Origin: an uncultured Nitrospiraceae bacterium
GTDB taxonomy: Bacteria > Nitrospirota > Thermodesulfovibrionia > Thermodesulfovibrionales > Dissulfurispiraceae
Assembly (NCBI GenBank): GCA_963705105.1
Contig: CAVPIW010000006.1
Location: 922,989-954,988, forward strand
Direction: 5' to 3'
Length of the DNA: 32,000 nt
A model generated the notes under the pieces. The model did no database searches, was not told the DNA's origin, and saw only the letters and a program-made list of their open reading frames with translations. The translations under genes were made by a program, and so were the position numbers. Shown here one piece after another: positions 14,353 to 32,000 of this stretch. Every line of letters starts with the position of its first letter. Position 1 is the first letter of the stretch.

Positions 14353-14581
14353 AACCTTATCGTTGCAACACACTCCCGGGAAAGGCGGAGCGATGATGCC
14401 ACCGCAAAAGTCATTAAGTCATTGAGTCATTAAAGTCATTGTCGGCAGTCGACAGTCGGAACAAGGTCACGAATACCAGGACGGGAAGGAAGCGTCGATA
14501 TAAAAACGATTCCTTTCACTGACACTGACACTCACACTGTCACTGTTTTTCAGAGCGCTTCACCCTGTCTTTCTGCACAAC
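14353..14581 (+). repeat. MITE-like element, copy 4
   Basis: Starts 6 nt after the argJ stop and ends 14 nt before the moeA stop (convergent genes). The right terminal repeat is degenerate (CTTCACCCTGTCTTTCTGCACAAC). Confidence 0.9.
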
Positions 14582-14594
14582 TTGCAGGGGAACG

Positions 14595-15830: not shown

Positions 15831-15854
15831 GGGGACGGAAGAAAACGCGCTCCC

Positions 15855-18010: not shown

Positions 18011-18614
18011 CGTCCTCCCCCTGAGGTTCCCGGTGCCGTTTCAGCGGCCTGTTGAACTCGTTCATCGCCCCGTCGAGGCCCCGGATAATGATGGCAGTGA
18101 CGGCATCAACCGCCTTTATTATAGCATCTTTGACAAGGTCCTGTTCAGAGGGGGAAAACTTCGACAGGACAAACTCATGGGCGGGTGCATCAACAGTCCT
18201 GCCGATGCCGATCTTGACCCGGGCAAAATCCTTCGTGCCGAGCGACTGGATGATCGACTCGATGCCGCGGTGACCGCCCGAAGAACCGCTCCGCTTTATT
18301 TTGACCCTCCCGACGTCCATATCGAGGTCATCGTGGACGACGATAAGGGCTTCGCCGGTCCCTTCCCTCTCCCGTCCTGCTCTTCTCATGACGCCGAGAA
18401 CAGCCGCGCCGCTCCTGTTCATGAAGGTGAGCGGTTTCAGGAGGACGATGTCACGCCCGTCGACAACACCCCGTCCGAGGCAGTATTCCTGTTTTTTTTC
18501 AAGGGAAATGCCCCACTCCCCGGAAAGGGCATCGATGACCATGAACCCGACGTTATGACGCGTTCGTGCGTATTTCCTGCCGGGATTCCCCAGCCCGGCG
18601 ATAATCGTCATCAA
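17991..18614 (-). CDS. pth: peptidyl-tRNA hydrolase
   Basis: MMTIIAGLGNPGRKYARTRHNVGFMVIDAL... is the canonical Pth N-terminus. The gene overlaps the pepA start by 20 nt. Confidence 0.93.
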   Translation of the reverse strand: MMTIIAGLGNPGRKYARTRHNVGFMVIDALSGEWGISLEKKQEYCLGRGVVDGRDIVLLKPLTFMNRSGAAVLGVMRRAGREREGTGEALIVVHDDLDMDVGRVKIKRSGSSGGHRGIESIIQSLGTKDFARVKIGIGRTVDAPAHEFVLSKFSPSEQDLVKDAIIKAVDAVTAIIIRGLDGAMNEFNRPLKRHREPQGEDDDRHQD

Positions 18615-18632
18615 GGCCTTCGGACCGGCCTG

Positions 18633-19277
18633 TTAGCCTTCGGCCTCCTCTGCTTTCTTGCCCTTCTTGATAATTTCGGGCTCCGCCGTCTCCACCTCCT
18701 CAACAACAGGAGCAGCGGCCTCTTCCTTGATCGCCGTCACCGTGACGATAAGCTCCTCGGGATCGGTGAGCACCCTGATCCCTTCGGCGAGTTTCAGATC
18801 GCCCACATGAATGGACTGCCCGATGCCGAGGGGGCTGACGTCGACATCGACGTGGCCCGGGATCTTGTCGGGCAGACACTCGATCTCGATTTCCCGGATC
18901 CCGTGCTGAAGCAGCCCGCCGTCCCTCTTGACGCCGACGGCTTCGCCGCTCGTCACAATATGCACCGCGATTTTCAGCATCTCCGTCGCCAGGATCTCCT
19001 GAAAATCGACATGGATCAGGCTGCTCGTTATCGGGTCGATCTGGTAATCCTTCATGATCGCCTGCCGCGTCTTGTCGGCGAAATTGAGATTGACCACGAC
19101 CTGCTCCCCCCCGGACCTGCTGATAAAGGACGTCAGCTCACGCTTCGAGATCTGTATGGGTTGGGACGTCCCTTCCCTGTAAAGGACCGCGGGGATGACG
19201 TTGTTCCTCCTCAGGTCGCGCGCGGCGCCCTTGCCCTTTCTCTCCCTCTTTTCGACATCAAGTGTCACTCTTTCCAT
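18633..19277 (-). CDS. rplY: 50S ribosomal protein L25/general stress protein Ctc
   Basis: 214 aa, N-terminus RERKGKGAARDLRRNNVIPAVLY, acidic/Lys-rich C-terminal tail. It sits in the usual position upstream of pth. Confidence 0.9.
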   Translation of the reverse strand: MERVTLDVEKRERKGKGAARDLRRNNVIPAVLYREGTSQPIQISKRELTSFISRSGGEQVVVNLNFADKTRQAIMKDYQIDPITSSLIHVDFQEILATEMLKIAVHIVTSGEAVGVKRDGGLLQHGIREIEIECLPDKIPGHVDVDVSPLGIGQSIHVGDLKLAEGIRVLTDPEELIVTVTAIKEEAAAPVVEEVETAEPEIIKKGKKAEEAEG

Positions 19278-19309
19278 GTATCCTCCTCATGATCATTCAT
19301 TCGAGTATT

Positions 19310-19575
19310 ACCGTATCGTTGCATGGCTACCCCGGAAAGGCGGAGCGAAGATGCCACCGCACAAGTCATTAAGTCATTGAGTCATTAAAGTCATTGTCGG
19401 CAGTCGACAGTCGGAACAAGGTCACGAATACCAGGACGGCAGCGTCGATATAAAAACGATTCCTTTCACTGACACTGACACCCACACTGACACTGTTTTT
19501 CAGAGCCCTTTCACTGACACTGACACTCACACTGTCACTGTTTTTCAGAGCGCTCTGCCCTGTCTTTTCAGCGCC
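19310..19575 (+). repeat. MITE-like element, copy 5, with internal 45-bp tandem duplication
   Basis: Family sequence plus two 45-nt units (19464-19508 and 19509-19553) that differ at 3 positions. It lies between the rplY start and the prs stop. Confidence 0.9.
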
Positions 19576-19579
19576 CGCA

Positions 19580-20521
19580 TCAGACGAAAAGCGAGCTCAC
19601 CGACGACTCGTCGTGTATCCTCTCGATCGCGTCGCCGAGCAGAGATGCAACGCTCAGGACTTTAAGCTTCCTGCAAATGACGGCCTTGTCTTCAAGGGGA
19701 ATCGTGTCCGTCGCGATGACCTCCTCGAGAGCCGACGCATTGATCTTGTCGATCGCCGGTCCGGACAGAACGGCGTGGGTACATGCCGCAAGCACCCGGT
19801 TCGCCCCGCCTTCCTTCAATGCGAAGGCCGCCTGTGCCATCGTCCCGGCCGTATCGATCATGTCGTCGAGAATGACGGCGTCTTTCCCCCGGACGTCGCC
19901 GATGACGTGCATCACCTTTGACACATTGGCTGCCTCCCGTCGCTTGTCGATGATGGCGAGATGGGCGTCGAGCCTCTTCGCAAAGGCCCTGGCACGCTCC
20001 ACACCTCCCGCGTCGGGCGAGACGACGACGAGGTCCCTGTATTCACCCCGCTTGATAAACTCGAGCAGGACCGGCGCCGCATAGAGATGATCGACAGGTA
20101 TGTTGAAGAAGCCCTGGATCTGCCCGGCATGGAGATCGATCGTCAGGATCCGGTGCGTCCCCGCCGCTGTGAGAAGATCGGCGATCAGCTTCGACGTGAT
20201 CGGTACCCTGGGCTGGACCTTCCTGTCCTGACGCGCATACCCGTAATAAGGAATGACGGCGGTGATCCTCCGGGCCGAGGCCCTCTTCAGGGCGTCGATC
20301 ATGATAAGCAGTTCCATGATGTTCGTATTCACGGGCGTGCAGGTGGACTGGATGACGAAAACGTCGTAGCCGCGGATGTTCTCGTTGATCTGGACCTGGA
20401 TCTCTCCGTCGCTGAACGTGTTGACCATCGCGTCCGCAAGGGGTATCCCAAGGTGCTTGCTCACCTTCAGGGCGAGGGCTCCGTTCGAATTACCGGTCAA
20501 CAACTTAATGCCGTTTGCCAT
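19580..20521 (-). CDS. prs: ribose-phosphate pyrophosphokinase
   Basis: [20 protein letters not shown]..., [34 protein letters not shown] lies before ATG 20521. The track ORF was trimmed from 20545. Confidence 0.93.
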
Positions 20522-20622
20522 GCATACCTCCGGGAAATATTCCATATCACACCGGCACGACGCCCCTTCTCATTCCGTCCTGATCCGGACAAAGAAATAT
20601 GAAGCGCTGCCTGCCTGATCAA

Positions 20623-20694
20623 CTGGGGCGCCAGGATTCGAACCTGGGAATGGCAGATCCAAAATCTGCTGACTTGCCGCTTGTCGACGCCCCA
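20623..20694 (-). tRNA. tRNA-Gln (anticodon UUG)
   Basis: The reverse complement reads TGGGGCG...GCAGA-TTTTGGA-TCTGC...GGTTCGAATCC...CGCCCCAG. It has a 7-bp acceptor stem, a TTG anticodon in a 7-nt loop and a T-loop GTTCGAATC, and is closely similar to E. coli tRNA-Gln. CCA is not encoded. Confidence 0.9.
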
Positions 20695-20752
20695 TATAGT
20701 CGTCTGGAACACGCGATATGCCCCGTGATCAACATCGGGACATCTCCGGCCC

Positions 20753-21619
20753 TCACAGGGACCGGTCCGTCAGGGTTTTCACCACCCTGCTCCAGCAGTC
20801 GGGGAACCTCCCCGCCGCCCTGCCCGCATCTTCGCTGCTGTCGAAAAGGCCGAAAAGGGCGGACCCGCTGCCGCTCATGAGGGCAGCCGCAGCGCCCGCA
20901 TCGAGAAGCCGCTTCTTCAGATCCCCGGCGACGGGATGGTCGTCGAAGACGGTCTCTTCAAAGTCATTGTGCAGCAGGGATGCCAGGCGGGACCTGTCCC
21001 GCGATTCAATGTACCGGTAAAGTAAGTTGATATTATGATATTCATCCCTTTTGTTTGTCAACGCAGCCGGCCCCCTGTTCAGCCTCCGGTAAGCCTCCGC
21101 CGTCGACACGGACAGGGCCGGTTTGACGATCAGGAGATCATATGATACGGTAGCCGGCAGCGGCTCCAGTTTCTCCCCCCTCCCTGCCGCGATCGCGAGA
21201 GGGCCGGCCATGAAGAACGGCACGTCCGAACCGAGTGACGCCCCGAGGGCCATGAGCTCCGGATCGGGCAGGGACAAGCCCCACAGGGCGTTCAGCCCCC
21301 GGAGAGTCGTCGCCGCATCGCTGCTCCCGCCGCCCAGCCCCGCGCCGGCGGGGATCTCCTTTCGCAGTGTGATCCGCGCGCCTTCGCGACAACCCGTGTA
21401 TTCCCGCAGCGCCCGGGCGGCCCGGCAGACGAGATTGTCCTCTGCAGGCAGCGCCATGTCCGACTCCAGGTGAAACGTGCGGGAGGGCAGAAAGATCAGG
21501 ACATCGCTGAGACTGACGCGCTGCATCAGGGACAGGATATCGTGATATCCGTCATCCCGCCTGCGCAGAACGTAGAGGGTCCAGTTTATTTTTGCGGGTG
21601 CTTCGAGCGTCAGGGTCAT
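20753..21619 (-). CDS. ispE: 4-diphosphocytidyl-2-C-methyl-D-erythritol kinase
   Basis: APAKINWTLYVLRRRDDGYHDI..., GHMP kinase motif IPAGAGLGGGSSDAA. Confidence 0.9.
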   Translation of the reverse strand: MTLTLEAPAKINWTLYVLRRRDDGYHDILSLMQRVSLSDVLIFLPSRTFHLESDMALPAEDNLVCRAARALREYTGCREGARITLRKEIPAGAGLGGGSSDAATTLRGLNALWGLSLPDPELMALGASLGSDVPFFMAGPLAIAAGRGEKLEPLPATVSYDLLIVKPALSVSTAEAYRRLNRGPAALTNKRDEYHNINLLYRYIESRDRSRLASLLHNDFEETVFDDHPVAGDLKKRLLDAGAAAALMSGSGSALFGLFDSSEDAGRAAGRFPDCWSRVVKTLTDRSL

Positions 21620-21645
21620 CGATCCTGAGGAAACGGGAGAGGGGC

Positions 21646-23412
21646 TCAGCGCTCCCCGGATTGACGAAGCTCCTTCAGCTTCTGCTCGACCCGGTCTTTC
21701 AGCCCCTCCTCCTTCTCGTGCTGGCGGAGGGACTTTTCATAACTTTCGATCGCCTTCGCGGGATCTCCCAGGGTCTTGTACACATCGCCGAGATGCTCAA
21801 AGAGAACGGGGTCGTCCTTCACCAGCTCCTGGGCGCGCAGCAGGGTCTTGAGAGCGTCGTCATGCCTCCCGAGCCTGAAATAGACCCAGCCGAGACTGTC
21901 GATGATGTACCCGCTGTCCGGCTTCAGATCAAGGGCCCGCTGAATGAGGGCAAGGGCTTCCTCGAGGTTGATCCCCTTGTCCGCATAGGAATAGCCGAGA
22001 TAGTTGAGGGCATCGGCATGCTTCGGGTTCAGCTCGATCGTCTTTTTGAGTGTGGCCACCAGCTCATCGAACTTCCCCGTTTTTTCATACACGACGGCCA
22101 TGAGAAAGTTGAGCTCGTCATTGTCGGGGAACTTTCCGAGCGCTCCCGTCACCACCTCACCGGCCTTGCCGTAGTCCTTGAGCGATATGTATGCATTCGC
22201 CAGAAAGGCATAGATATCAGGTTTATCCTTCTCGAAGGTGAGCACCTCCTCGTAAATCCGTGCCGCTTCAGCGTACTTGTTCTGCTTGCCATAGACCGAA
22301 GCCAGGGTGAGAAAAGCGCTCACATTTTTCGGATCTGCAGCAAGGATTTTTTTCAGTTCCGCCGCCGCCTCTTCATATCGCTGCAGCTCGGCCAGGACAA
22401 GGGCGAGGTAATACCGGGCCGACGCGTTGTCCGGGCGGGCTTCGAGTACGAGCCTGAACTCGTCGATCGCCTTGTCGAACTGGTTCTCCTGGACATACAG
22501 GAGGCCCAGCCGCTGGTGCAGGTCGATGTTCAGAGGCATGTCCTTCGCCGCCTCTTCGAGCTCCCTGATCGCCTTTTCGTAAGACTTGTCGGCCACGTAA
22601 AGCTGGGCGAGACGCTCCCGGGCATAGAGATTGTGAGGGTTGACGACAAGCACCTTCTTGTAATACTCCTCAGCCTCAGCGGGTTTGCCCCTGAGCTCGT
22701 TGATTATGCCGAGATTGAAATAGGCGGCATCGAAGGAGGGGTTGATCCCGATGATGGTGATGAAGCGCTCTTCAGCCTTTTGATATTTCTTGTCCTCGAG
22801 ATCCATCGAACCGAGGTAATACAGGGCCATGATATTTTCAGGCTCCTTTACGAGCACGTCGTCGAAGACCGCCCGGGCCTTCCCGCTCTCCCTTTTCGTC
22901 GCGTACATCGCGCCGAGATGGAGCCTCGCATCTATCCTCTCAGGGTCTTTTGAGATCACCTTTTCGTAGAGTGGAATCGCTTCGTCGAGCTTCTTCTGTG
23001 AGCCGTAGAGCTCGGCCAGCAGCATGAGGGCCGGGATGTGATCGGACGTCTCCTGCAGGACCTTCTCGAGTCCCGCGACGGCGTCCGATATCCTGCCCAG
23101 CTTGACGTACATCCGGCAGATCTGCGTCTTGACATGAGCTGACGACGGATCGATCTCGAGCACCTTCCCGTAATGTTCCAGGGCCGCCTCCCACTTCCCC
23201 CTGATCTCCGCTTCATATCCCAGAAAGTATTCGAGATAGGCCGACTGCACGTACTTCTCCGCTGTGTCAGAGCGCTGCGGTTTCGTTATTTCGGCATAAA
23301 AAGCGAAGACGGGGCCGCTCTGTGCAGTCAGAATGACGGACAGAAAGAGGGACAGCGAGACGATATATGCAGACATCAATAGTCTTCTCCGGCGAAAGGA
23401 TTGATCTATCAT
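21646..23412 (-). CDS. TPR-repeat protein with N-terminal signal/anchor
   Basis: 588 aa of repeated 34-aa TPR-like units (…A..Y..vL..dP.n..A...La.lY…). N-terminus MIDQSFRRRRLLMSAYIVSLSLFLSVILTAQS. An alternative start is at 23376 (SD GGAGAAG). Confidence 0.85.
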   Translation of the reverse strand: MIDQSFRRRRLLMSAYIVSLSLFLSVILTAQSGPVFAFYAEITKPQRSDTAEKYVQSAYLEYFLGYEAEIRGKWEAALEHYGKVLEIDPSSAHVKTQICRMYVKLGRISDAVAGLEKVLQETSDHIPALMLLAELYGSQKKLDEAIPLYEKVISKDPERIDARLHLGAMYATKRESGKARAVFDDVLVKEPENIMALYYLGSMDLEDKKYQKAEERFITIIGINPSFDAAYFNLGIINELRGKPAEAEEYYKKVLVVNPHNLYARERLAQLYVADKSYEKAIRELEEAAKDMPLNIDLHQRLGLLYVQENQFDKAIDEFRLVLEARPDNASARYYLALVLAELQRYEEAAAELKKILAADPKNVSAFLTLASVYGKQNKYAEAARIYEEVLTFEKDKPDIYAFLANAYISLKDYGKAGEVVTGALGKFPDNDELNFLMAVVYEKTGKFDELVATLKKTIELNPKHADALNYLGYSYADKGINLEEALALIQRALDLKPDSGYIIDSLGWVYFRLGRHDDALKTLLRAQELVKDDPVLFEHLGDVYKTLGDPAKAIESYEKSLRQHEKEEGLKDRVEQKLKELRQSGER

Positions 23413-23432
23413 GGACAGATCTTCAGCCCTGC

Positions 23433-23464
23433 AGAAAAAGAAGAGGGGTCTCGACGAGACCCCC
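23433..23464 (-). terminator. intrinsic terminator of the mini-gene
   Basis: The minus strand reads GGGGTCT-CGTCG-AGACCCC followed by TCTTCTTTTTCT. It starts 24 nt after the mini-ORF stop. Confidence 0.75.
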
Positions 23465-23487
23465 GATGTAATCCAAAGCCCCGGTGT

Positions 23488-23550
23488 TTAGCAGGAGCTC
23501 TTGCACTTGCAGGTTGTTGATACCTTCTTTGAAACTTTCCTGATCACCAT
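23488..23550 (-). CDS. 20-aa Lys/Cys-rich small ORF MVIRKVSKKVSTTCKCKSSC (candidate small protein or RiPP precursor)
   Basis: Too short for the ORF track. ATG 23550 has GGAGGTG 12 nt upstream, its own extended -10 promoter, and a terminator right after the TAA at 23488-23490. Confidence 0.4.
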   Translation of the reverse strand: MVIRKVSKKVSTTCKCKSSC

Positions 23551-23605
23551 GTTGACTCTTCACCTCCCCTTCAAAGGGAATACGAAGGCTTCATGCCCCG
23601 CTGAC

Positions 23606-23614
23606 ATTATACCA
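23606..23614 (-). promoter_or_regulatory. extended -10 promoter TGGTATAAT
   Basis: The minus strand reads ...GATTTATGGTATAATGTCAGC..., a perfect TATAAT with an upstream TGn. The -35 position coincides with the edge of MITE copy 6. Confidence 0.5.
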
Positions 23615-23632
23615 TAAATCAGGTTCTTCTTT

Positions 23633-23855
23633 ACCTTATCGCTGCAATACATTCCCGGGAAAGGCGGAGCGAAGATGCCACCGCAAGAGTCATTAAGTCA
23701 TTGAGTCATTAAAGTCATTGTCGGCAGTCGACAGTCGGAACAAGGTCACGAATACCAGGACGGCAGCGTCGATATAAAAACGATTCCTTTCACTGACACT
23801 GACACTCACACTGACACTGTTTTCAGAGTGCTTCGCCCCGCCTTTTCATGCAACG
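23633..23855 (+). repeat. MITE-like element, copy 6
   Basis: Full-length copy. Its right terminal repeat CTTCGCCCCGCCTTTTCATGCAACG ends 8 nt from the radical SAM stop codon (23863-23865). Confidence 0.92.
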
Positions 23856-23862
23856 CCCCGGA

Positions 23863-25038
23863 TCATGCCGGAAAATCCTTGAGCCCGTAAGCGGAGCATT
23901 TGTAAGGATCGCGTCTCCCCTGCCCCAAAGATGTCTCCGCCCTGAAACGGCAGCCCCCACGGCATACATCGATGTGGCCGCAGGAGATGCGCGCACATTC
24001 CAGCTCATCGAGACGGACGGGACTGACCCGGCCCCACGCTGCGCGGAGCCCCCCGCTTACCTTCCCTGCCGGTTTGTCCCCGTAGAAGGCGCATTTGGCG
24101 ACCGTTCCGTCCGCCAGGACCGAGGCGAGATGGAGACCGCAGCCGTAACCTTTACCGCCGCCATGGAGCCCTCCCCCGAATCCATAGGAAAAATAAGGGC
24201 CGGCGATCTCGGGAGGGACCTGGAAGAGCGCGTTTTCAGCGAAGCTTCCCGAGACGCAGGGGACATCGACGGTCCAGTCCCTGATGCCCATGCCCCTGAA
24301 AAGGAGATCCATTCCGTCGAATTCCTCCAGGTTTTCCCGGTGCACCATCGTGGCGACCGAGACGGACATCCCTTCAGAAAGGGCGTCACCGATCCTGTCC
24401 ATCACCTTACCGTATGTCCCCTTCCCCCTCAGGGCCTCGTGGCCGTGCTCCATGCCGTCGACACTGAACTGGATCTCGTCGACGTTGAGCCCCCTGATGA
24501 GGTCCTTCCGGAGCAGGAGACCGTTTGTAAAGAGGACCTTCCTGAAGGCGTAAAACGGCAGATCGTTGTTGAACTCCTGAAAGCTGCTGTGCAGGAGGGG
24601 CTCACCGCCGCTGATGAGGAGCCGCAGCCCCTGCATCTCCTCGAATTCGCGGAGCACGCGACGCAATGAGTCGATGGGGAGTTCTCTGTCCGAAGGCTTT
24701 CCGATGTAACAATGCCTGCACCGGAGGTTGCACTTCGTCGTGATCTGGAGCTCGAGGTACCGCAGGGACGGGACGGGGGATTTCAGCAGAGGCGGTCTCC
24801 TGACGGCAACACGCCTCTCCGTCAGCAGGCCCTCGGAAAGACAGTCGTCGATAAAAGACCGGTCGGCCTGCGAGCCGTCGCACCCTTCGTCGGAGGCGCA
24901 TCCCTGCAGGAAGGAGAAGGCACTGTCGTCGACCTCATAGAGTTCGTCATTCTCAATATCATAGACAGAGGGTTCTTCAAGCCGTTTAAGGGCACATCTG
25001 TCTGAAAGATAGTATCGCACCATGTATTCTACCATCAT
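23863..25038 (-). CDS. radical SAM/SPASM domain protein with N-terminal PqqD/RRE-like extension (peptide-maturase-like)
   Basis: CNLRCRHC (CxxxCxxC) follows a ~95-aa N-terminal region. C-terminal Cys cluster: GCGLHLASVLADGTVAKC, CARISCGHIDVCRGGC and YKC, a SPASM-like pattern. Confidence 0.85.
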   Translation of the reverse strand: MMVEYMVRYYLSDRCALKRLEEPSVYDIENDELYEVDDSAFSFLQGCASDEGCDGSQADRSFIDDCLSEGLLTERRVAVRRPPLLKSPVPSLRYLELQITTKCNLRCRHCYIGKPSDRELPIDSLRRVLREFEEMQGLRLLISGGEPLLHSSFQEFNNDLPFYAFRKVLFTNGLLLRKDLIRGLNVDEIQFSVDGMEHGHEALRGKGTYGKVMDRIGDALSEGMSVSVATMVHRENLEEFDGMDLLFRGMGIRDWTVDVPCVSGSFAENALFQVPPEIAGPYFSYGFGGGLHGGGKGYGCGLHLASVLADGTVAKCAFYGDKPAGKVSGGLRAAWGRVSPVRLDELECARISCGHIDVCRGGCRFRAETSLGQGRRDPYKCSAYGLKDFPA

Positions 25039-25151
25039 CCCTCAGCATCGGGGATCATGGTACAGCGATGCGAAATGCTTGCCCCTTCCGACACCAGGAC
25101 CATGAGGGGGATCGCTTCAGCACTCAAGAAGAGACGGATCGGCGGCCTCAT
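25035..25151 (-). CDS. hypothetical 38-aa upstream ORF overlapping the radical SAM start (ATGA); doubtful
   Basis: MRPPIRLFLSAEAIPLMVLVSEGASISHRCTMIPDAEG. Its stop TGA overlaps the rSAM ATG. There is only a weak SD-like GGTGGA 2 nt before the ATG. The longer track ORF runs into the MITE. Confidence 0.2.
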   Translation of the reverse strand: MRPPIRLFLSAEAIPLMVLVSEGASISHRCTMIPDAEG

Positions 25152-25173
25152 AGTCCACCGGGGCAGCGAGATA

Positions 25174-25391
25174 AACCTTATCGTTGCAATACACTCCCGG
25201 GAAAGGCGGAGCGAAGATGCCACCGCAAGAGTCATTAAGTCATTGAGTCATTAAAGTCATTGTCGGCAGTCGACAGTCGGAACAAGGTCACGAATACCAG
25301 GACGGCCGCGTCGATATAAAAACGATTCCTTTCACTGACACTCACACTGTCACTGTTTTTCAGAGCGCTTTGTCCCGCCTTTGCATGCAAC
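25174..25391 (+). repeat. MITE-like element, copy 7
   Basis: Full-length copy with one hexamer unit fewer than copies 4 and 6. It lies between the rSAM upstream region and the high-GC block. Confidence 0.92.
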
Positions 25392-25536
25392 AGAAAGGTT
25401 AAGAAAGAAACTGTCGGAACCCGGGTATGGGCCGTCCCGTCAAGGCGGCTGTTCATCGCCTGTTCGAGACAGAAACATTTTCCCGTGAGCCCGCCGCCGG
25501 GTCACTGGCAGAGCCGACGGTCGAGACCCCTGCACG

Positions 25537-25986
25537 TCACGTTCCGCGCCGCCCCACGGCGTCGCGCAACGTGGTGATCATGTGCTGCAAGATCGCCATC
25601 AACGCCGCGGCGGTCATACCGAGCATCAGCACGCCGTTCACAGCCTCGAGCGGGCCGAGCAGCCTGCGCTCGCGGCTCATCACGATGTCACCGTAACCGA
25701 GCGACGTGAAATTCACGGCCGAGTGGTAAATCGCGTCGTACGGCTGCTCGAACTCGCCGAGTCCAAGGAAGAGCCCGCCCCACAGAGCGATTTGCACAAA
25801 GTTGCCGACCATCATCACCACCGTCACGACGATCAACGGGGCAATGCCCACCAGGAAGCCGCGGCCACTGCCGATCACCGACGATCGCCCCACGTAGTAG
25901 CGCACGCACCAGAAGGCCACGGCCACCTGCACGATCAGGCACAGCAACGTCACCGGAAGGCCGATCAGAAAATTGACCAGTGTCAT
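25537..25986 (-). CDS. small K+-channel-like protein (TM helices plus pore loop with TSLGYGD)
   Basis: The 149-aa product carries the selectivity-filter-like sequence NFTSLGYGDIV. ATG 25986 overlaps the stop of the upstream gene (ATGA). The track ORF was trimmed from 26073. Confidence 0.8.
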   Translation of the reverse strand: MTLVNFLIGLPVTLLCLIVQVAVAFWCVRYYVGRSSVIGSGRGFLVGIAPLIVVTVVMMVGNFVQIALWGGLFLGLGEFEQPYDAIYHSAVNFTSLGYGDIVMSRERRLLGPLEAVNGVLMLGMTAAALMAILQHMITTLRDAVGRRGT

Positions 25987-27029
25987 GGTGTCTCCTTCGA
26001 TAGGATCATAGAGGTCGCTGCCGGAGGCGATCTCCGGTCGCGCCAGCGCTCGAGCGCCCACACGGTCGCCCATGCGTAGAACGCGACACCGACGAAGAGG
26101 CTCACGCGCATCGCGGCGCCTTCAAGCACGCTCTTGCCGCTTGCGCTGTCCTCGATCGCCGGACCGAGCAGGATCAGCGCGGTGATCAGGGCGTTGCTCC
26201 AATAGGACGGCGGGTACCGGGTGCGCCGCATGCGGTAGAGCGCCGAGCCCGCCCAGAGCGACGCGGCCATCAACCACAGCACGAGCATCCACAAGCTCGG
26301 CCAAAGCGACAGGCCAAGCCAGACCGCGAGCGCGATCAGCGCTCCCATCAGCGTCGAACCGACCAGCTCACGTCCGGCGGTTCGCGCATCGGTCTCGCCG
26401 GCCTGCTGGCCGAGCGCCACCGTCTTCATGATCGCCGCCAGGTAGAATGACGGGTCCGTCAGCGCGAGCACGAACACCGGCATCACGATCAGCGTGCCGC
26501 GCAGCGCGATCCAGCGCGCCATCGCGGGATCCGGCCGGATCCCTTGCCGTGTGGCCCCCGGCGTCGGCGGGTCAGGAAAGACGGCTGCCGACACTGCGCC
26601 GACGAGCGTGCCGACAAGCACGCCGACCGCGAAGGTCTTGCTGAGTACGCCGACCAGAGCCTGCTCGGATACGCCGGCCACCGGAACCAGCGTGAAAGCC
26701 AGAACCAGGACCGTGGTCAGCGGGTTGCGCCTCAACCGCCCGACGAAGAACAGCGCGAACAGCAGCGCCGCGGTCACGAGCAGGCCGGCGAACGCGAAGT
26801 GCTGGAGCAGGGGGACCATCGTTACGCCGGCAGCGACCATCAGCGACAGCGCGCACGCGACGACCACCGCCTTCAGCAGCGGCAGCGGCGGTCCCGGCTT
26901 GGATAGTACGAGCACCGCGAGGATGCAGACGAGGTACGGAGCCTGCAGCGCCATTCCGTAAGCGACAAACGCCGCCAGGCCTGTGCCGACCGTCAGCCGC
27001 AGCGCCGCCTTGTCGCCCCGGGACATCAT
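25983..27029 (-). CDS. polytopic inner-membrane protein, FUSC/DUF2955-like putative efflux component
   Basis: 348 aa and very hydrophobic, with multiple predicted TM helices. It sits directly after a HlyD-type gene with overlapping stop and start. The family name is tentative (from memory). Confidence 0.75.
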   Translation of the reverse strand: MMSRGDKAALRLTVGTGLAAFVAYGMALQAPYLVCILAVLVLSKPGPPLPLLKAVVVACALSLMVAAGVTMVPLLQHFAFAGLLVTAALLFALFFVGRLRRNPLTTVLVLAFTLVPVAGVSEQALVGVLSKTFAVGVLVGTLVGAVSAAVFPDPPTPGATRQGIRPDPAMARWIALRGTLIVMPVFVLALTDPSFYLAAIMKTVALGQQAGETDARTAGRELVGSTLMGALIALAVWLGLSLWPSLWMLVLWLMAASLWAGSALYRMRRTRYPPSYWSNALITALILLGPAIEDSASGKSVLEGAAMRVSLFVGVAFYAWATVWALERWRDRRSPPAATSMILSKETP

Positions 27030-28195
27030 CAGTACAGGTAGGTGACCCAGCTGACGAACCGCATGTAGAACGCGGCGAGCGCATTCATCAGCGGATGGTC
27101 GCCGGTGTAGACCAGCACGTCGGCCTGGCCTCCGACACGCGCCATCTTCAGCCGCGGGAGTTCGGCGGGGTCGAATTCGACGGCGACCGGGATGCGCTGC
27201 GCCTGGCGCAGCCAGTCGCGGCTGTTCTTCACGACCGGCAGCGTTCCGGGCGGCGAAGTCTGCTCGCCGCCGACGCCGATGCCGATGCTGCGTACGCGAC
27301 CCTTCAGCACTTCGCCCGGCAACACGTCGAGCACGATCGCGACCTCGTCGCCGGGACGGACATTGCCGATGTTGTTCTCGGTCAGGTCGGCGCTGATCCA
27401 GAGGTCCTGCATCGCAACTAGCGTCATGACCGGCGCACCGGGCTGCGCGAACTGCCCCACTTCGGTGCGCAAGTCGGTGACGACGCCGCGCACCGGCGCC
27501 AGCACGCGGGTGTGGCGCAGGTCCAGTTCCGCCTTCTCGACAGCCGTCACCGCGCCGCGCAGCTGCGAGTTCTCGCCGCCGCTGCTCCCGGCCGCCTCCT
27601 GGGCTTGCCGCAGGTCGGCTTGCGCACGGTGCACCTTGCTGCGCGCTTCTTCCCGAGAGGCCTGCGCCATTTCCAGCCGGCGCACCGAGATCGTGCCCGG
27701 ATCTTCCCGGTAGAGACCTTCCAGGCGACCCGCATCGCGCTCGGCGAGGTCGAGGCCGGATTCGGCCACCGCAAGCGAGGCCCGCGCCGCGTCGACGGCC
27801 GCCGCCGACGCTTGGACCGAACTGCGGACCGATTCGAGGTCGGTGCGCGCCCGCTCCAACGCGATGCGATAGGGCTGCGTGTCGATGTCGAACAACCGCT
27901 GGCCGGGCTGCACCTCGTCGTTGTTGCGGATGTGCACCGCCGTGACCTTGCCCGCAACCTCGGCCGCCACGGGCACGACAAAGGCCTGCAGGCGCGCCTG
28001 CGACGTGCTTGGCGTCAGGCGGTCGCCGACGAAATAGAACGTGAGGCTCCCCACGATGAGCGCCGCGATTACGACTGCACCCACACGGGTCCCGCGTCCC
28101 GTCGGCGAACTCTTCGCCGGCTCCGCCGCTGTGGTTGCATCCCCAGCCTGGCCGGCGGCCGGCGGAGCGGACGTTGACGCTGGATCCTGGTTCAT
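27029..28195 (-). CDS. HlyD/EmrA-type membrane fusion (periplasmic adaptor) protein
   Basis: MNQDPAS..., a single TM helix (VGAVVIAALIVGSLTFYFV), a coiled-coil region and beta-barrel motifs (VLAPVRGVVTDL, RPGDEVAIVLD). ATG 28195 overlaps the OMF stop (ATGA). The 651-aa track ORF N-terminal extension is rejected. Confidence 0.88.
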   Translation of the reverse strand: MNQDPASTSAPPAAGQAGDATTAAEPAKSSPTGRGTRVGAVVIAALIVGSLTFYFVGDRLTPSTSQARLQAFVVPVAAEVAGKVTAVHIRNNDEVQPGQRLFDIDTQPYRIALERARTDLESVRSSVQASAAAVDAARASLAVAESGLDLAERDAGRLEGLYREDPGTISVRRLEMAQASREEARSKVHRAQADLRQAQEAAGSSGGENSQLRGAVTAVEKAELDLRHTRVLAPVRGVVTDLRTEVGQFAQPGAPVMTLVAMQDLWISADLTENNIGNVRPGDEVAIVLDVLPGEVLKGRVRSIGIGVGGEQTSPPGTLPVVKNSRDWLRQAQRIPVAVEFDPAELPRLKMARVGGQADVLVYTGDHPLMNALAAFYMRFVSWVTYLY

Positions 28196-29796
28196 CTTGT
28201 CTCCTCCGGCAGCGGTGGAAGGAATTCGGTCGCCGGTGACGGAAGGGGCGCCGTCAGCAGATTTCGCCAGTCGCTGCGCTCGGACATCGCTGCCTGCGTG
28301 GCATCGTCGAGCACGGGCCGCAGCCGGCCAGCCTCCCAGCCGCCCCCCAATGCCTTGTACACGGCGATCAGGTTCTTCGCGACGTTGCCCTCGCTTGTCA
28401 CCAGGCGCTCTTGCTGGTTGAACAGCGCGCGTTGCGAATCGAGCACACGCTGAAAGTCGACCAGCCCCTCGCGATACTGAAGGGTGGCGATGTCCAGCGA
28501 GCGGCGCGCCGCCTTTACCGCCTCGCGCAGGATGTCGACCTGCGCGCGACTGCGTGCGAAGCCCGTGGCGACGTCGTCCAGTTCGCGAGCGGCCCGCAGC
28601 ACCACGTCCTGATACTGCTCGTACAGTTGCTGGAAGCCGGCATCCTGTACAAGCACCTGGTTCGTTAGGCGGCCGTAGTCGAACACGTTCCACACCAGCG
28701 CCGGCCCGAGCACCCAGCCGAGCGTGCTGCCCGTCGAACCGACCGAGGCGGCCGACAGCGCTAACGATCCGGCGAGGGCGATCGAAGGATAGAGCGCCGC
28801 CTCGCTGACGCCGATCTGCGCCGACTGCGCGGCCAGCTGCAATTCGGCCGCGCGCACGTCGGGACGCCGGCGCAGCAGCGCAGCGGGCAGCCCGTCGATC
28901 ACGCTTAGCGGCGCATCGGGAATCTTCGCACGCCCACTGCTCATCTCTGTCAGCGGTCCTGGCGGGCGCGCGAGCAGCACGCACAACGCGTTCTGCGCCT
29001 GGCGCAGGCTGCTTTCCAGCTCCGGAATCGTGGCCAGCGTGCTCAGGTACTGCGACCGCGCCTGCTGCACATCGAGTTCCGAGTCGTTGCCGCTGCGGAA
29101 CAGCCGTTCGGTGATCTCCAGACTCCGTTGCTGGAGGGCGGCGTTATCGTGCGCAAAGTCAAGGTGGCGCTCGATTGTGCGGATTGCCGCGTAGAGACTC
29201 GCCGTCTGCGCTGCCACCAGCACCTGGACGTCATCGTACTGCGCGATGCTGACGAAGTACGCGGCGTCGGCGGATTCGATGCCACGCCTGAACTTTCCCC
29301 AGAAGTCGATCTCCCAGGCGATGTCGAAGGCCACTCCCGCAGACCAGTAAGATTGGCCGCGGTCGTCTTCCGCGCGCCTGAAAACCGCTTCGCGGCTGCT
29401 GCTGCCCTCGCTGCCCACGCGCAGCACCTCGCCCGTCACCTGTTGCAGCTGCGGATACAGTGCACTGCCGGCGATGCCGAGCCTGGCGCGCGCCTCCATG
29501 ATGCGCATGCCGGCGATCAGCACGCCGGGATTCACGCGCTGCGCCTCGCCGACCAGGCGGTCGAGCGCAGGGTCGCCGAACGTGCGCCACCACTCGTCGT
29601 GCGGCACCGGGGCGCGAGGCGGCGCGGCGTCGACGAGCGCACGCCACTCCCCGCCCGGCCAGTCCCGCAACCACGGCACCTGCGGGCGCGCGAAATCAGG
29701 TCCGACCGTTGTGCACGCGCCGAGCGCGAGCGCGGCAGCCAGTGCCATCAGTGACAACAGAGGGCCGCGCATCGCGGCCGTCGCCGAGCGTATCAC
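28192..29796 (-). CDS. efflux outer-membrane factor lipoprotein, NodT family
   Basis: Lipobox ALALGAC followed by TTVGPDFARP, the typical NodT/OprM-family N-terminus. 534 aa. The start could instead be Met9 at 29772. Confidence 0.9.
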   Translation of the reverse strand: MIRSATAAMRGPLLSLMALAAALALGACTTVGPDFARPQVPWLRDWPGGEWRALVDAAPPRAPVPHDEWWRTFGDPALDRLVGEAQRVNPGVLIAGMRIMEARARLGIAGSALYPQLQQVTGEVLRVGSEGSSSREAVFRRAEDDRGQSYWSAGVAFDIAWEIDFWGKFRRGIESADAAYFVSIAQYDDVQVLVAAQTASLYAAIRTIERHLDFAHDNAALQQRSLEITERLFRSGNDSELDVQQARSQYLSTLATIPELESSLRQAQNALCVLLARPPGPLTEMSSGRAKIPDAPLSVIDGLPAALLRRRPDVRAAELQLAAQSAQIGVSEAALYPSIALAGSLALSAASVGSTGSTLGWVLGPALVWNVFDYGRLTNQVLVQDAGFQQLYEQYQDVVLRAARELDDVATGFARSRAQVDILREAVKAARRSLDIATLQYREGLVDFQRVLDSQRALFNQQERLVTSEGNVAKNLIAVYKALGGGWEAGRLRPVLDDATQAAMSERSDWRNLLTAPLPSPATEFLPPLPEETR

Positions 29797-30925
29797 TCGA
29801 GGTGCCCGGCGTCCGCGTTGGCCGGCGGGAGCTTCGCCTCCGATTTTTCTCCGCGACCCAGCTCATGAAGAGCTGGTAGCCCAGCGCCAGCAGCGTCGCG
29901 CCGACGAACATCCCGAGAATGCCCGCAGCCGCCATCCCGCCGAGAGCGCCGAGCAGAATGACCGGCATCGGCGCCTCGACCCCGCGGCCCAGCATCAACG
30001 GCTTGAGGACGTTGTCGGCCATGCCCGAGACGATCAACAGCACAGTGTAAGCGATCGCCTCGAACGTCCCGTAGGTGCCGGTCCACCAGATATAGCCGAT
30101 CGCCGGCAGAGTGACGATGAGCGCCGGCACTTGGGCGATGCCGAGCACCAGGACGATGGCCGCCAGCGCGCCCACCCAAGGCACGCCGGCGATCAGCAGG
30201 CAGACGCCGACGATGATGGCCTGAATGAACGCGACACCGATGACGCCTTGAGCGACCGCGCGGATCGTCGCGGTGACAAGCACGGTATACTCGGCGCCGC
30301 GCTCATCGCCCGCGAAGCGCCTGAAGATCGACTCGCAGCTCCGCGCGCCTGCCTCCCCGAAGGCCATGACGATCCCGGCGATGATCAGCGCGGCGACGAA
30401 CAACAGGAGCCCGGTGCCGATGCTGGCGACAAAGCCGAGCGCAGCCTTGGCGATTTCGCCGAGCTTCGGCTGCATGCTCTGCACCAATCCCGGCAGATCC
30501 GCGTAAGCCTGCGACCAGACGGCGTACACCTTACCGCCGACCACCGGCCATTGAGCCACCGATTCGCGCGGTGCCGGAATCTTGAGCGTGTTGTTCTGCA
30601 CGTCGATGATTAACTGTTGCAAGGAGTCGCCCAGCGAACTCATCAGCAGGGCGGTCGGCACGACGATCACCATGAAGCCGAGGAGCACCAGCAGCGTAGC
30701 CGCCAGCCCCTGCTTGCCGCCGATCTTGCGAGCCAACGCCTGATGCAGCGGATACAACGAAACGGCCAGGATCACCGCCCAGATCATCAGCGTCAGGAAC
30801 GGCGAAAAGACCTTAAAGCACAGGAGGGCCAGGGCGAGGATCAGGCCGGCACGAATCAGGACATCCAGCAAAAGGGATGCTAACCGGTGTTCGAGTTCTT
30901 GATCAAGCTGGGGGGGGGTGTTCAT
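29696..30925 (-). CDS. AI-2E family transporter (PerM/YhhT-like permease)
   Basis: 409 aa, multi-TM, with a typical AI-2E layout (FSPFLTLMIWAVILAVSLYPL..., VPALIVTLPAIGYIW...). SD GGAG lies 7 nt before the ATG. The 3' end overlaps the OMF start by ~100 nt. Confidence 0.85.
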   Translation of the reverse strand: MNTPPQLDQELEHRLASLLLDVLIRAGLILALALLCFKVFSPFLTLMIWAVILAVSLYPLHQALARKIGGKQGLAATLLVLLGFMVIVVPTALLMSSLGDSLQQLIIDVQNNTLKIPAPRESVAQWPVVGGKVYAVWSQAYADLPGLVQSMQPKLGEIAKAALGFVASIGTGLLLFVAALIIAGIVMAFGEAGARSCESIFRRFAGDERGAEYTVLVTATIRAVAQGVIGVAFIQAIIVGVCLLIAGVPWVGALAAIVLVLGIAQVPALIVTLPAIGYIWWTGTYGTFEAIAYTVLLIVSGMADNVLKPLMLGRGVEAPMPVILLGALGGMAAAGILGMFVGATLLALGYQLFMSWVAEKNRRRSSRRPTRTPGTSSDTLGDGRDARPSVVTDGTGCRARARRVHNGRT

Positions 30926-30995
30926 GGTTCATCTCCAGTAGTTTAGGAATTTCTTTCAGCATATAGTTGAAAATGTCGCAGGGTCCGTCATACGA

Positions 30996-31268
30996 TCATT
31001 CCCCCTTCGGGAGGTCGGCGTCTCTCGCGACGTATGAAAACCTGAAGAGGGGAAAAGCATGACATCGGCTGCAACCGGCGTTTGCAGGGTCTTTTTTCCG
31101 ATAACTTAGATTGACTGCAGCGTGAAAAGGAATGCCCCGCCAAGTGCGGAATACCCGCTTCAAGATGTTCGGGAAGGTGCAGGTCCGCCGAAAGATCCAA
31201 TAGTAACCGTGCTGCAATTCCTCCGCGGTCATTCTGTTGTGATACTTTGACCGATTTTGCTCCGACAC
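30996..31268 (-). pseudogene. C-terminal remnant of a B12-binding radical SAM (DUF4070-like) gene
   Basis: The translation ...HNRMTAEELQHGYYWIFRRTCTFPNILKRVFR... resembles the C-terminal DUF4070 region. No upstream coding continuation exists on this strand. Confidence 0.35.
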
Positions 31269-31844
31269 GCCTTATCCCATCTATTCGATCTTATCGGAAG
31301 AAATAGGGTAAGTCAAGGAGACAGGCAGCCTTTTGCATCGTTTGGGGGGGAAAGTAACTGTCTCATATTACCGAAACGGGATATCATGCAGCCACTGCAT
31401 GAAAATCAGAATCTGTTATTCAGAGACTACAAGAGTTCCTCTGAAGAAAGCAGCATGACCCCGAAAAAGCAGTTCCGTGAGCGCGCTGATTCCCAGTGAT
31501 AGAACTAAACCGCTGCGCGGTGGTGATGAGTGGTCAGCGCAGTGAAACTGAATAGAGCTTTATTCTCTTTGTAGAGGCGTCCCGTTCGGCTCCCCTTGTT
31601 GAACAATCCCCATCGTCTTACAATCTCCTTTTGGTGTACCTGACGGCATGAGCTGTCGGATATTGATACCAGAGGAGTATCTGCTCTTTCAATGTGCTCA
31701 TGCAACTGTGCTCAGCATCGCATTCCCCCCGAGCGAAGCGAGGGGGGAACGCTGAAGCTCATGGGGAGGCGTGAGCATCACGCCGATCCCATGAAGCGCC
31801 ACGTTATAGTTCACCGTTTCGTTTCATATTGAATAGATACAACC

Positions 31845-32000
31845 TCACGAAAACAAGAAAGAACATACAATAAGCAATATGCCAGCTACGGATGTAAACG
31901 CGGCAAACCTATAGCTACTGTCGAGCAAGTCCATGTTATTCCGCAGTCTTCGATATTCAGCCTCTGAATTCTCAGCGTACTTGTATTCACTATCAAAAAG
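31845..32000 (-). CDS. 3' end of an unidentified gene running off the window (C-terminal TM anchor)
   Basis: Open frame from the window edge: LFDSEYKYAENSEAEYRRLRNNMDLLDSSYRFAAFTSVAGILLIVCSFLFS, stop at 31845-31847. Low-GC sequence. Confidence 0.3.
   Translation of the reverse strand, partial: LFDSEYKYAENSEAEYRRLRNNMDLLDSSYRFAAFTSVAGILLIVCSFLFS

Follow-up and report, generated by a model that had tools for sequence, protein, structure and literature searches.

The window, that is, the whole 32,000-nt stretch of DNA analysed here, carries towards its right end a block of ~5.4 kb with ~68% GC. The block holds a single minus-strand operon of five translationally coupled genes, all intact. The features of the locus are the following.

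25175..25385, no strand assigned: copy of a dispersed MITE-like repeat of ~211 nt (family D1/I1-I8), the left neighbour of the block and outside the presumably transferred DNA
25392..25536, minus strand: spacer or 3' trailer that separates the last gene from the repeat; GC climbs here from 0.54 to 0.67 (100-nt profile)
25537..25986, minus strand: two-TM K+-channel-like protein, 149 aa (Pfam Ion_trans_2; TSLGYGD filter motif), last gene
25983..27029, minus strand: DUF2955 inner-membrane protein, 348 aa, with 12 predicted helices (DUF2955 profile and predicted fold)
27029..28195, minus strand: periplasmic adaptor (membrane-fusion protein, MFP), probably of the EmrA/MdtN/AaeA type, 388 aa (Pfam HlyD_D23, HlyD_3, Biotin_lipoyl_2)
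28192..29772, minus strand: NodT-family outer-membrane factor (OMF) lipoprotein, 526 aa (TIGR01845; Pfam OEP, two matches)
29696..30925, minus strand: AI-2E family (PerM/YdiK-like) permease, 409 aa (PF01594), first gene of the operon
25451..29718, no strand assigned: segment of 4,268 bp that a co-occurring variant lacks; it extends from OMF codon 19 to a point 86 nt beyond the channel gene
30931..31320, minus strand: upstream region of the operon, low in GC (0.45-0.57), host-type or otherwise non-donor DNA
31288-31467 and 31483-31677, no strand assigned: two other dispersed repeats in the right flank, with blastn copies on contigs C7 and C12 (72-78%) and C14 (88%, 195 nt)

Starts overlapping stops, Shine-Dalgarno sites and a lipobox can be read in the operon, and Pfam and NCBIfam profiles bear out the five gene identities proposed in a preliminary description of this DNA. 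The AI-2E permease matches PF01594 in full length (101 bits, cutoff 34.3; model positions 6-323 of 327) and scores 183 with the YdiK equivalog, below the cutoff of 305. Its 3' end overlaps the start of the OMF gene by 77 nt. The OMF carries a signal peptide and an LGAC lipobox, reaches 327 bits with the outer_NodT model TIGR01845 (cutoff 210) and is 24% identical to Escherichia coli MdtP (E=5e-23). The ATG of the adaptor gene overlaps the OMF stop downstream of a GGAGGAG Shine-Dalgarno sequence, and its product is 32% identical to E. coli MdtN (E=3e-35). Among the NCBIfam models, the adaptor matches MdtN (1e-57; 196 bits vs 376) and EmrA/EmrK (1e-51; 176 vs 391) below the equivalog cutoffs and passes the generic RND_mfp model (110 vs 94.9). 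The start of the channel-like gene likewise overlaps the preceding stop, with AAGGAG ahead of it; the protein scores 35.7 bits with PF07885 (Ion_trans_2; cutoff 22.5) and has weak sequence matches in the PDB to NaK/Kv pore regions.

The DUF2955 protein belongs to a small family (407 representative clusters in 1.84 billion proteins), on which a literature search returned nothing relevant. The window protein itself matches DUF2955 at E=9e-4 (19.6 bits, below the cutoff of 25.5) and FUSC_2 at E=0.19; among its aligned relatives, DUF2955 is matched by 39 of 39 (best 3.7e-17) and FUSC_2 by 8 of 39. An AF2 model computed from 10 close sequences was unusable (pLDDT 45.7) and was rebuilt with 39 diverse sequences, yielding a pLDDT of 93.2. 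Foldseek aligned this model to those of AaeB and YdhK with a TM-by-query of 0.65-0.75 and a probability of 1.00. For AaeB the TM was 0.71 by query and 0.40 by hit, the latter being low because the cytoplasmic domains are absent from the DUF2955 protein. A PDB sequence search gave no match, Foldseek against the PDB gave spurious MFS matches only (TM 0.2), and hhalign of DUF2955 profiles against E. coli MdtO was not significant (E=0.11). As modelled, the protein looks like a minimal membrane domain of the AaeB/FUSC type and is presumed to be the inner-membrane component of a pump. The operon most likely encodes a tripartite exporter like AaeAB or MdtNOP, with small organic or aromatic acids or comparable toxic solutes as its substrates. 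The AI-2E permease and the putative K+ channel would then be accessory partners conserved alongside it.

The preliminary description had singled out the block as an abrupt compositional island, and the three GC values it had counted by hand are exact (26041-26100, 70.0%; 21661-21720, 58.3%; 31861-31920, 43.3%). Its GC content at 25392-30930 is 67.3%, compared with 58.5% at 1-25391, 48.4% at 30931-32000 and 57.1% in the 4.23-Mb host genome, where 5-kb windows have a standard deviation of 3.2%. This corresponds to z=3.4 genome-wide, equal or higher GC being found in only 0.9% of the 5-kb windows. In a 1-kb sliding profile, GC stays at 0.66-0.70 across 25.5-30.5 kb and at 0.51-0.65 in the rest of the window. 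Tetranucleotide usage (TUD) of the block correlates with the genome profile at 0.65, which lies in the lowest 5% (mean 0.87). The strong G/C bias claimed for third positions is present in all five genes (GC3 0.83-0.87; 0.867 in the channel-like gene), compared with a genome median of 0.73 and a 99th percentile of 0.85 among long ORFs. The contrast with the backbone genes of the window is real but quantitative and modest, because the backbone is itself rich in GC3 (mostly 0.74-0.80). In composition and oligonucleotide usage alike, the island differs from its host. As a separate observation, the same assembly contains other odd stretches: 38-84 kb of contig C6 has 65-76% GC with eukaryote-type domains, and contig C3 is high in GC along its whole length.

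A modest GC3 gap, together with GC1 and GC2 that are raised in the island genes as well, as hydrophobic proteins would give, is also what one would see if the cluster were native and vertically inherited, owed its high GC to local mutation bias or to membrane proteins rich in Ala, Gly and Arg, and had been lost by the relatives. The likewise atypical tetranucleotide usage argues against this explanation, and so does the distribution of the island. Its left flank (19.5-25.2 kb; prs, tRNA-Gln, TPR and radical SAM) is syntenic with conserved gene order in 40/40 relatives (41/41 genomes), and the named best matches of the backbone prs belong to Nitrospirota, Thermodesulfovibrionales, Dissulfurispiraceae or Dissulfurispira (at most 81%). 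Island DNA, however, occurs in 0/40 of these relatives and 0/300 genomes of the class, save noise below 150 nt, and a DUF2955 homolog (E<=1e-10) in 0/300 class genomes. To the right of the island, synteny is not conserved: in 7 relatives, the neighbours of the radical SAM gene have their counterparts on other contigs of the host genome (C4, C9, C11, C18). This break runs across the whole family, so that no clean empty site can be demonstrated. The atypical composition continues for ~12 kb further right as a low-GC accessory stretch, and the island is the left end of a mosaic accessory stretch of roughly 18 kb.

The nearest named relatives of the island genes are all betaproteobacterial, with 66-82% amino acid identity, whereas paralogs in the own genome are 28-38% identical and the DUF2955 and channel genes have none there. 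A native origin appears extremely improbable. For the adaptor, all named homologs come from Betaproteobacteria (Ramlibacter with 78%, Dechloromonas, Variovorax, Accumulibacter, Azonexus). All five genes are found collinear on the Burkholderiales contig L030 (70-76% GC), with 78% nucleotide identity over 5,351 nt and next to an acyl-CoA dehydrogenase gene whose product is 89% identical to that of Piscinibacter. Four Accumulibacter loci (GC 60-69%) also carry the five genes in collinear order; they are the 4 relevant loci returned by a contig scan with adaptor peptide patterns, which were too strict. The permease is 68% identical to its L030 counterpart and 60-65% to those of Accumulibacter. Most close homologs are unnamed metagenome proteins, which leaves ~10 named sequences and the contexts of L030 and the Accumulibacter loci as the basis of the donor label. 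In the adaptor tree, one clade (SH-aLRT 99) unites the seven copies from low-GC contexts; it is the sister group of L030 and lies within the betaproteobacterial sequences, its neighbours being Ramlibacter, Variovorax, Accumulibacter, Dechloromonas and Azonexus. Phyletic absence, betaproteobacterial relatives, a collinear donor-type locus and the tree strongly support the earlier suggestion that a proteobacterial-looking efflux cassette was acquired horizontally in an accessory region.

The direction of transfer has to be weighed separately. In the order of Accumulibacter, a DUF2955 homolog (E<=1e-30; identity up to 77%) is present in 7/301 genomes only, so the operon is sporadic and accessory there too, and a third party could have been the immediate donor. 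Transfer from Thermodesulfovibrionales into Burkholderiales, or from a third high-GC donor to both, would be in keeping with such a pattern. The cassette GC of 68%, however, fits L030 and Accumulibacter and not the 57% host, and the operon equals its flanks in composition in L030 but stands out in every low-GC context. Moreover, the copies in low-GC contexts make up one shallow clade inside a deeper betaproteobacterial diversity. We therefore regard a reverse or third-party transfer as improbable and prefer a Burkholderiales-type donor.

The edges of the transferred DNA can be placed quite closely. The GC climb within 25392-25536 puts the left end of the foreign DNA inside the spacer, roughly at 25450-25536; the cassette-bearing contig L021 is similar over 25488-25539 (90%), and in L020, L022, L030 and L031 homology ends at 25536-25557. 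On the right, the drop in GC takes place over the initial ~60 nt of the AI-2E gene, and homology of the donor type ends at ~30870, in agreement with an edge near the start of this gene and an upstream region already low in GC. The upstream region, 30931-31320, has no homology to any donor-type locus. A promoter scan upstream of the operon found 2 sites vs 0.9 expected (weak), one of them sigma-70-like at 31316-31288, and an Rfam scan of the island edges and leader gave no match. The gene remnant previously reported in the right flank was not confirmed: a 90-aa ORF at 30996-31268 (minus strand) lacks a Pfam match (E<=5) and a paralog in the genome, and the two dispersed repeats are found there instead. 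Neither Pfam nor paralogs supported this ORF as a radical SAM remnant.

A copy of the MITE-like repeat does adjoin the island, as had been noted for the left boundary, yet a mechanistic role for it is not supported. The repeat gives 483 blastn HSPs on 17 contigs of the genome, of which only 9 are at least 150 nt long, and its Logan word depth is 250-340 vs ~7 on the flanks. Within 20 kb on the left side of the island, six long copies are found next to ordinary syntenic genes. At the island there is one copy, on the left side, and none on the right; near the cassette in four other host contexts (L020, L021, L022, L031) there is no copy. With neither two-sided flanking nor recurrence at other insertion sites, the case for MITE-mediated insertion is weak. 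The island also shows no mobility signature of the usual kind. Direct or inverted repeats are lacking at its ends (best local alignments score 17, the chance level), and no integrase or transposase was found in or adjoining the block. The nearest transposase-like gene (Y1_Tnp) lies ~3.6 kb to the right of the island, beyond the window, and the tRNA-Gln gene (20623-20694) is 4.7 kb away with syntenic genes between. Since integrase, tRNA edge and direct repeats are missing, transformation followed by illegitimate recombination would be the default guess for the mechanism.

Chimeric assembly had been named as the alternative to acquisition; in that case a betaproteobacterial fragment would have been wrongly spliced or binned into a Nitrospirota contig at repeat copies. 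In its favour, the assembly is evidently of the metagenome type with 19 contigs, a multicopy repeat lies at the left edge, where the X1 Logan contigs break, and C6 and C3 contain the odd stretches described above. Nonetheless, the block lies within a contig of 1.11 Mb and is flanked on either side by host-type sequence and host repeats. Independent Logan contigs bridge the right edge (X1, 30839-31301; X2, 30658-31094; X5 also crosses 30925), and an X2 contig (25357-25879) bridges the left edge at 25392-25537. The X1 and X2 contigs come from two different studies, those of X2 being ~93-97% identical with the same arrangement. In X1, a contig also connects the AI-2E gene with the host-side spacer, and word depth is similar on the island (~3.5-10) and on the flanks (~6-12). 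In addition, four more contigs carry the high-GC cassette within low-GC, Thermodesulfovibrionales-like flanks. An assembly artefact is thereby largely refuted already and is left with a minimal probability.

The cassette is also informative about what followed its arrival. L020, L021, L022 and L031 carry it with 83-95% nucleotide identity as a high-GC block in flanks of 48-60% GC. These flanks match Thermodesulfovibrionales genomes at 70-82%, the placement of L020, L021 and L031 at order level resting on nucleotide matches of 70-74% only. Synonymous divergence (dS) is 0.08-0.45 for the cassette and 1.2-1.6 (saturated) for the backbone, so that the cassette is 5-15 times less diverged between lineages than backbone genes; this implies a spread within Thermodesulfovibrionales and is a further argument against a native cluster. 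The dN/dS values of 0.17-0.41 indicate that the cassette genes are under purifying selection. A 254-aa protein encoded beside the cassette in L021 and L031 has no mobility-related domain. Loss can be seen as well: one X1 Logan contig (963 nt, depth 9.7), on which the deletion variant rests, joins 25370-25450 directly to 29719-30579 with 1 nt of microhomology. The two ends of this deletion share no repeats (best local alignments at chance level).

In four contigs, the donor-type AI-2E gene is reduced to remnants and a different low-GC AI-2E gene (36% identical) occupies the same place, which looks like a non-orthologous replacement that keeps the partnership. This hints at a bolder reading, to which we give only a small chance: the five genes could form one obligate functional module, in which a minimal AaeB-like tripartite exporter cannot do without an AI-2E-family permease and a dedicated K+ channel. 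Such a module would pass from phylum to phylum, and afterwards within Thermodesulfovibrionales, as a self-contained cassette with no recognisable mobility gene. The channel may then serve, for example, charge or K+ compensation of organic-anion export.

With its composition, gene content, absence from the sampled relatives, betaproteobacterial affinity, assembly continuity and a divergence below that of the backbone, all directly observed, the block is very probably an operon acquired horizontally from Burkholderiales-type Betaproteobacteria by a Thermodesulfovibrionales (Dissulfurispiraceae-like) chromosome. The five genes would have entered together as one unit, just to the right of the conserved prs, tRNA-Gln, TPR and radical SAM block, where synteny among relatives breaks. 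The operon would have kept its donor-like 68% GC, moved between lineages of the order after entry, and now probably be disappearing again from part of the population. As gene transfers across phyla go, we consider the case well supported but ordinary, and it does not overturn current understanding. It illustrates cleanly how anaerobic sediment Nitrospirota have recently received genes from aerobic or facultative Burkholderiales, and how these genes have since spread further and are being lost again. Because independent assemblies separate a real transfer from chimeras here, the island can serve as a calibrated positive control when methods of island detection or quality checks on metagenome assemblies are evaluated. 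It further highlights an uncharacterised operon type (AI-2E, OMF, MFP, DUF2955, K+ channel) that is conserved across lineages, and the predicted fold would give the DUF2955 family a structural link to AaeB-type exporters.

In the wider context of gene exchange, interphylum transfer of magnetosome gene clusters involving Dissulfurispiraceae is reported in a preprint (bioRxiv 10.1101/2022.03.28.486042). The locus resembles classical inter-phylum islands in its atypical GC and oligonucleotide usage, patchy distribution, foreign affinity and position at a synteny breakpoint in an accessory stretch. It differs from classical genomic islands in that integrase, tRNA attachment site, flanking direct repeats and conjugation or phage genes are missing, and in that the unit is one small operon of 5.4 kb. 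Similarly, the putative channel shares with 2-TM K+ channels of the KcsA/NaK type a pore domain above the Pfam cutoff (Ion_trans_2) and the GYGD signature. Unlike these, it has 149 aa with no recognisable gating domain, and its gene always comes at the end of an efflux operon, translationally coupled to the gene before it.

Closest in organisation are two systems of E. coli. AaeAB mediates p-hydroxybenzoate efflux and consists of the adaptor AaeA and the PET/FUSC-family membrane protein AaeB; MdtNOP comprises the adaptor MdtN, the FUSC-type protein MdtO and the NodT-type OMF MdtP. Like them, the island encodes an OMF in one operon with an adaptor, probably of the EmrA/MdtN/AaeA type, and an inner-membrane protein that may belong to the FUSC superfamily. 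Its inner-membrane protein, however, has 348 aa vs 655-683 and is devoid of cytoplasmic domains, belongs to DUF2955 and not to FUSC/ArAE, and has no significant profile match to MdtO. The gene order also differs (OMF, MFP, inner-membrane protein), and genes for an AI-2E permease and a K+-channel-like protein are added, which are kept in all five-gene loci seen.

The high-GC stretch at 25392-30930 is a real compositional island. Its GC content is 67.3%, compared with 58.5% for 1-25391 and 48.4% for 30931-32000, and 1-kb sliding windows stay at 0.66-0.70 across 25.5-30.5 kb and at or below 0.65 in the rest of the window. Set against the genome (4.23 Mb, 19 contigs, 57.1% GC), the block has a GC z-score of 3.4, with only 0.9% of 4,142 genome-wide 5-kb windows (sd 3.2%) equally GC-rich, and its tetranucleotide correlation with the genome profile (0.65 versus a genome mean of 0.87) falls in the lowest 5%. 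These measures confirm the abrupt block of the preliminary description, whose three single-line GC counts (70.0%, 58.3% and 43.3%) we reproduced exactly. The block holds five genes with overlapping stops and starts:

30925-29696, minus strand: AI-2E family permease, 409 aa (PF01594, 101 bits)
29772-28192, minus strand: NodT-family outer-membrane factor (OMF) lipoprotein, 526 aa (TIGR01845, 327 versus 210 bits; LGAC lipobox)
28195-27029, minus strand: EmrA/MdtN-type adaptor, 388 aa (32% identity to E. coli MdtN, E=3e-35)
27029-25983, minus strand: DUF2955 membrane protein, 348 aa (family assigned via relatives and fold)
25986-25537, minus strand: K+-channel-like protein, 149 aa (Ion_trans_2; TSLGYGD motif)

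The G/C bias claimed for their third positions stands at a GC3 of 0.83-0.87 (long ORFs: median 0.73, 99th percentile 0.85), but since backbone genes of the window mostly reach 0.74-0.80, the contrast is a matter of degree.

Homology to all other cassette copies stops at 25536-25557 on the left, and homology to L030, a Burkholderiales-type metagenome contig, stops at ~30870 on the right, 55 nt inside the AI-2E gene. GC climbs across 25400-25500 and drops across 30800-30900, so the originally proposed limits are correct within ~100 nt. The idea that the island begins at a MITE copy did not hold. Parts of this 211-nt repeat gave 483 HSPs on 17 contigs, only nine of them at least 150 nt long; six of these nine lie within 20 kb left of the island (5877-25385), beside ordinary syntenic genes, and the ~470 others are short fragments, a pattern suggesting that one full-length subfamily of a modular element expanded in a local burst. 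Beside the cassette in the four other host contexts (metagenome contigs L020, L021, L022 and L031) the repeat is absent. The copy at 25175-25385 is a neighbour of the insert, not its end. Similarly, no recognisable gene remnant, as had been reported for the right flank, was found there. This flank contains one weak promoter-like site and the following repeats:

31288-31467 and 31483-31677: dispersed non-coding repeats, with copies on contigs C7, C12 (72-78%) and C14 (88%, 195 nt)

An Rfam search of the island edges and right flank matched no family, and the island showed no integrase, att-like repeat or tRNA edge.

Chimeric assembly had been put forward as an alternative to horizontal acquisition. 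The window occupies 922989-954988 of the 1.11-Mb contig C6, whose ends are 948 kb and 158 kb away from the block; to the right of the block, host-type composition and host repeats return from ~966 kb of that contig. We aligned Logan contigs, assembled independently of this assembly, to 24000-32000. Data set X1, from freshwater sediment, provides exact-match contigs inside the cassette at a word depth of ~3.5-10, comparable to the ~6-12 of both flanks (repeat: 250-340), and a 463-nt contig crosses the right edge (30839-31301). On the left, X1 contigs are interrupted solely by the multicopy repeat, and one of them connects the spacer on the host side with the AI-2E gene. Contigs of X2, from a different study and ~93-97% identical, cover the radical SAM gene, cross the left edge (25357-25879, from the repeat end through the spacer into the channel gene) and span 26142-28886 and 30658-31094, while X5 contigs also cross 30925. 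With the right junction bridged in three data sets, the left in X2, and the depth of the block matching its flanks, a misassembly is not supported.

The host backbone is Thermodesulfovibrionales: the named best matches of the prs gene, all at or below 81%, are Nitrospirota, Thermodesulfovibrionales and Dissulfurispiraceae bacteria and Dissulfurispira thermophila. DNA to the left of the island (19.5-25.2 kb), with prs, tRNA-Gln, a TPR protein gene and radical SAM, has a match in the same order in 41 of 41 genomes searched. Neither 40 relatives nor, apart from matches below 150 nt, 300 class genomes contained the island DNA, and those 300 also lack a homolog of the DUF2955 protein at E<=1e-10. 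All five genes are single-copy in the genome, with best native paralogs 28-38% identical and no paralog for the DUF2955 and channel genes.

The closest relatives lie elsewhere. Adaptor homologs number in the thousands, and the named ones among the best 120 are all betaproteobacterial (Ramlibacter at 78%, Dechloromonas, Variovorax, Accumulibacter, Azonexus and Burkholderiales MAGs). In L030 (70-76% GC) the five genes are collinear with those of the island and align in a single 5,351-nt stretch at 78% nucleotide identity; an acyl-CoA dehydrogenase encoded in its flank shares 89% identity with the Piscinibacter sakaiensis enzyme, and the remaining named matches of this contig are Comamonadaceae or Burkholderiaceae. 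Four Accumulibacter genomes encode all five genes at 55-67% amino acid identity. The operon is accessory in the order of Accumulibacter too, given that the DUF2955 gene occurs in 7 of 301 sampled genomes (up to 77% identity). A maximum-likelihood tree of 120 adaptors unites the copy of the window with six others from low-GC contexts in one group (SH-aLRT 99), sister to L030 and nested among betaproteobacterial sequences. Horizontal acquisition, the other reading of the preliminary description, is thus well supported, with Burkholderiales-type Betaproteobacteria as the source, by absence in relatives, best matches, the collinear L030 and the adaptor tree.

The four closest metagenome contexts keep the order OMF, adaptor, DUF2955 and channel at 83-95% nucleotide identity, as a 68-71% GC block within 48-60% GC flanks that match other places of our genome at ~70% and genomes from other Thermodesulfovibrionales families at up to 74-82%. 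Measured from the window, dS is 0.08-0.45 in cassette genes but 1.2-1.6 in housekeeping genes of the flanks, so the split of these lineages is much older than the cassette. Together with the single adaptor clade, this contrast suggests that the cassette entered the order once and subsequently spread laterally. A dN/dS of 0.17-0.41 indicates that the cassette genes were kept functional. Of the donor-type AI-2E gene, only remnants of 30 aa (87% identity) and 104 aa (75%) persist in L020 and L031, and a different gene lies upstream of the cassette:

L020:300-1400, L021:1440-2540, L031:3-1100 and L022:7700-8190: AI-2E gene of 48% GC, common to the four contigs at 89-96%

This gene, 36% identical to that of the island and without an ortholog in our genome, is possibly a non-orthologous replacement. 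With the donor-type gene reduced to remnants in these contexts, the original five-gene unit is most complete in our genome. The single X1 contig that connects spacer and AI-2E gene (963 nt, depth 9.7) fuses 25370-25450 directly to 29719-30579; the joint has 1 nt of microhomology, and the contig shows 7 differences. It suggests that a co-occurring strain lacks 4,268 bp, from codon 19 of the OMF gene to a point 86 nt beyond the channel gene.

Atypical tetranucleotide usage goes on to about +43 kb in window coordinates as a 49-55% GC stretch. Its genes encode an IS200-like Y1 transposase fused to a DnaA_C-type HTH, along with an alkyl sulfatase, a pair of PmbA/TldD-like proteins, one HEAT-repeat protein and an AAA_14/DUF4143 ATPase. 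As gene order right of the radical SAM gene also varies among all relatives examined, the island sits at a breakpoint inside an ~18-kb mosaic accessory region. The Y1 transposase, which is RAYT-like (323 aa, C6:957389-958360, L019:3890-4861, minus strand), ~3.6 kb right of the window's end region, could mobilise one of the genome's abundant small repeat families. An intact IS1634-family transposase (388 bits versus a cutoff of 100) lies in the backbone at 11231-12907, plus strand.

The genome has further odd stretches. Outside the window, C6:~38000-84000 comprises ~46 kb at 65-76% GC, free of MITE fragments; its part L041 (C6:44000-63999) encodes a 1,670-aa ORF with Ribonuc_2-5A and zf-CCCH domains (L041:4706-9715, minus) and an ORF with Nrap_D6 (L041:12531-15683, plus). 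With such eukaryote-type domains in a Nitrospirota contig, this stretch is a chimeric join or else a very odd acquisition. C7:1-30000, the whole of C3 (9.2 kb) and C9:1-2000, at 65-73% GC with atypical tetranucleotides, encode OmpA, SulP/STAS, Sel1/PDZ, Ser/Thr kinase-TPR and VIT/VWA proteins and are candidates for other foreign islands or binning contaminants.

The island is an instance of a well-known phenomenon. Modest extra interest comes from its secondary spread, with no mobility genes visible, among Nitrospirota of sediments, from the population-level deletion seen on one contig, and from the conserved, uncharacterised layout of AI-2E, minimal AaeB-like pump and K+ channel. The DUF2955 protein itself scores a weak 19.6 bits on the DUF2955 model (cutoff 25.5), but each of the 39 aligned relatives hits DUF2955, and 8 hit FUSC_2 as well. 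An AF2 model from this alignment (pLDDT 93.2) resembles the AlphaFold models of AaeB and YdhK (TM-by-query 0.65-0.75, probability 1.00); TM-by-hit against AaeB is only ~0.40 because AaeB is twice as long. PDB sequence and structure searches found no matching solved structure, hhalign gave no significant match to MdtO, and a place in the AaeB/MdtO family proper is not established. In E. coli K-12 (4295000-4312000), mdtNOP adjoins the alkyl sulfatase gene yjcS, which the alkyl sulfatase gene ~5 kb right of the island (L019:5285-7381) recalls, probably by coincidence. The OMF and adaptor families and the AaeB-like predicted fold suggest that the operon would act as a tripartite exporter of the AaeAB/MdtNOP type whose FUSC-like membrane component is minimal. 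Unlike AaeAB and MdtNOP, it adds two conserved genes, for the AI-2E permease and the K+-channel-like protein.
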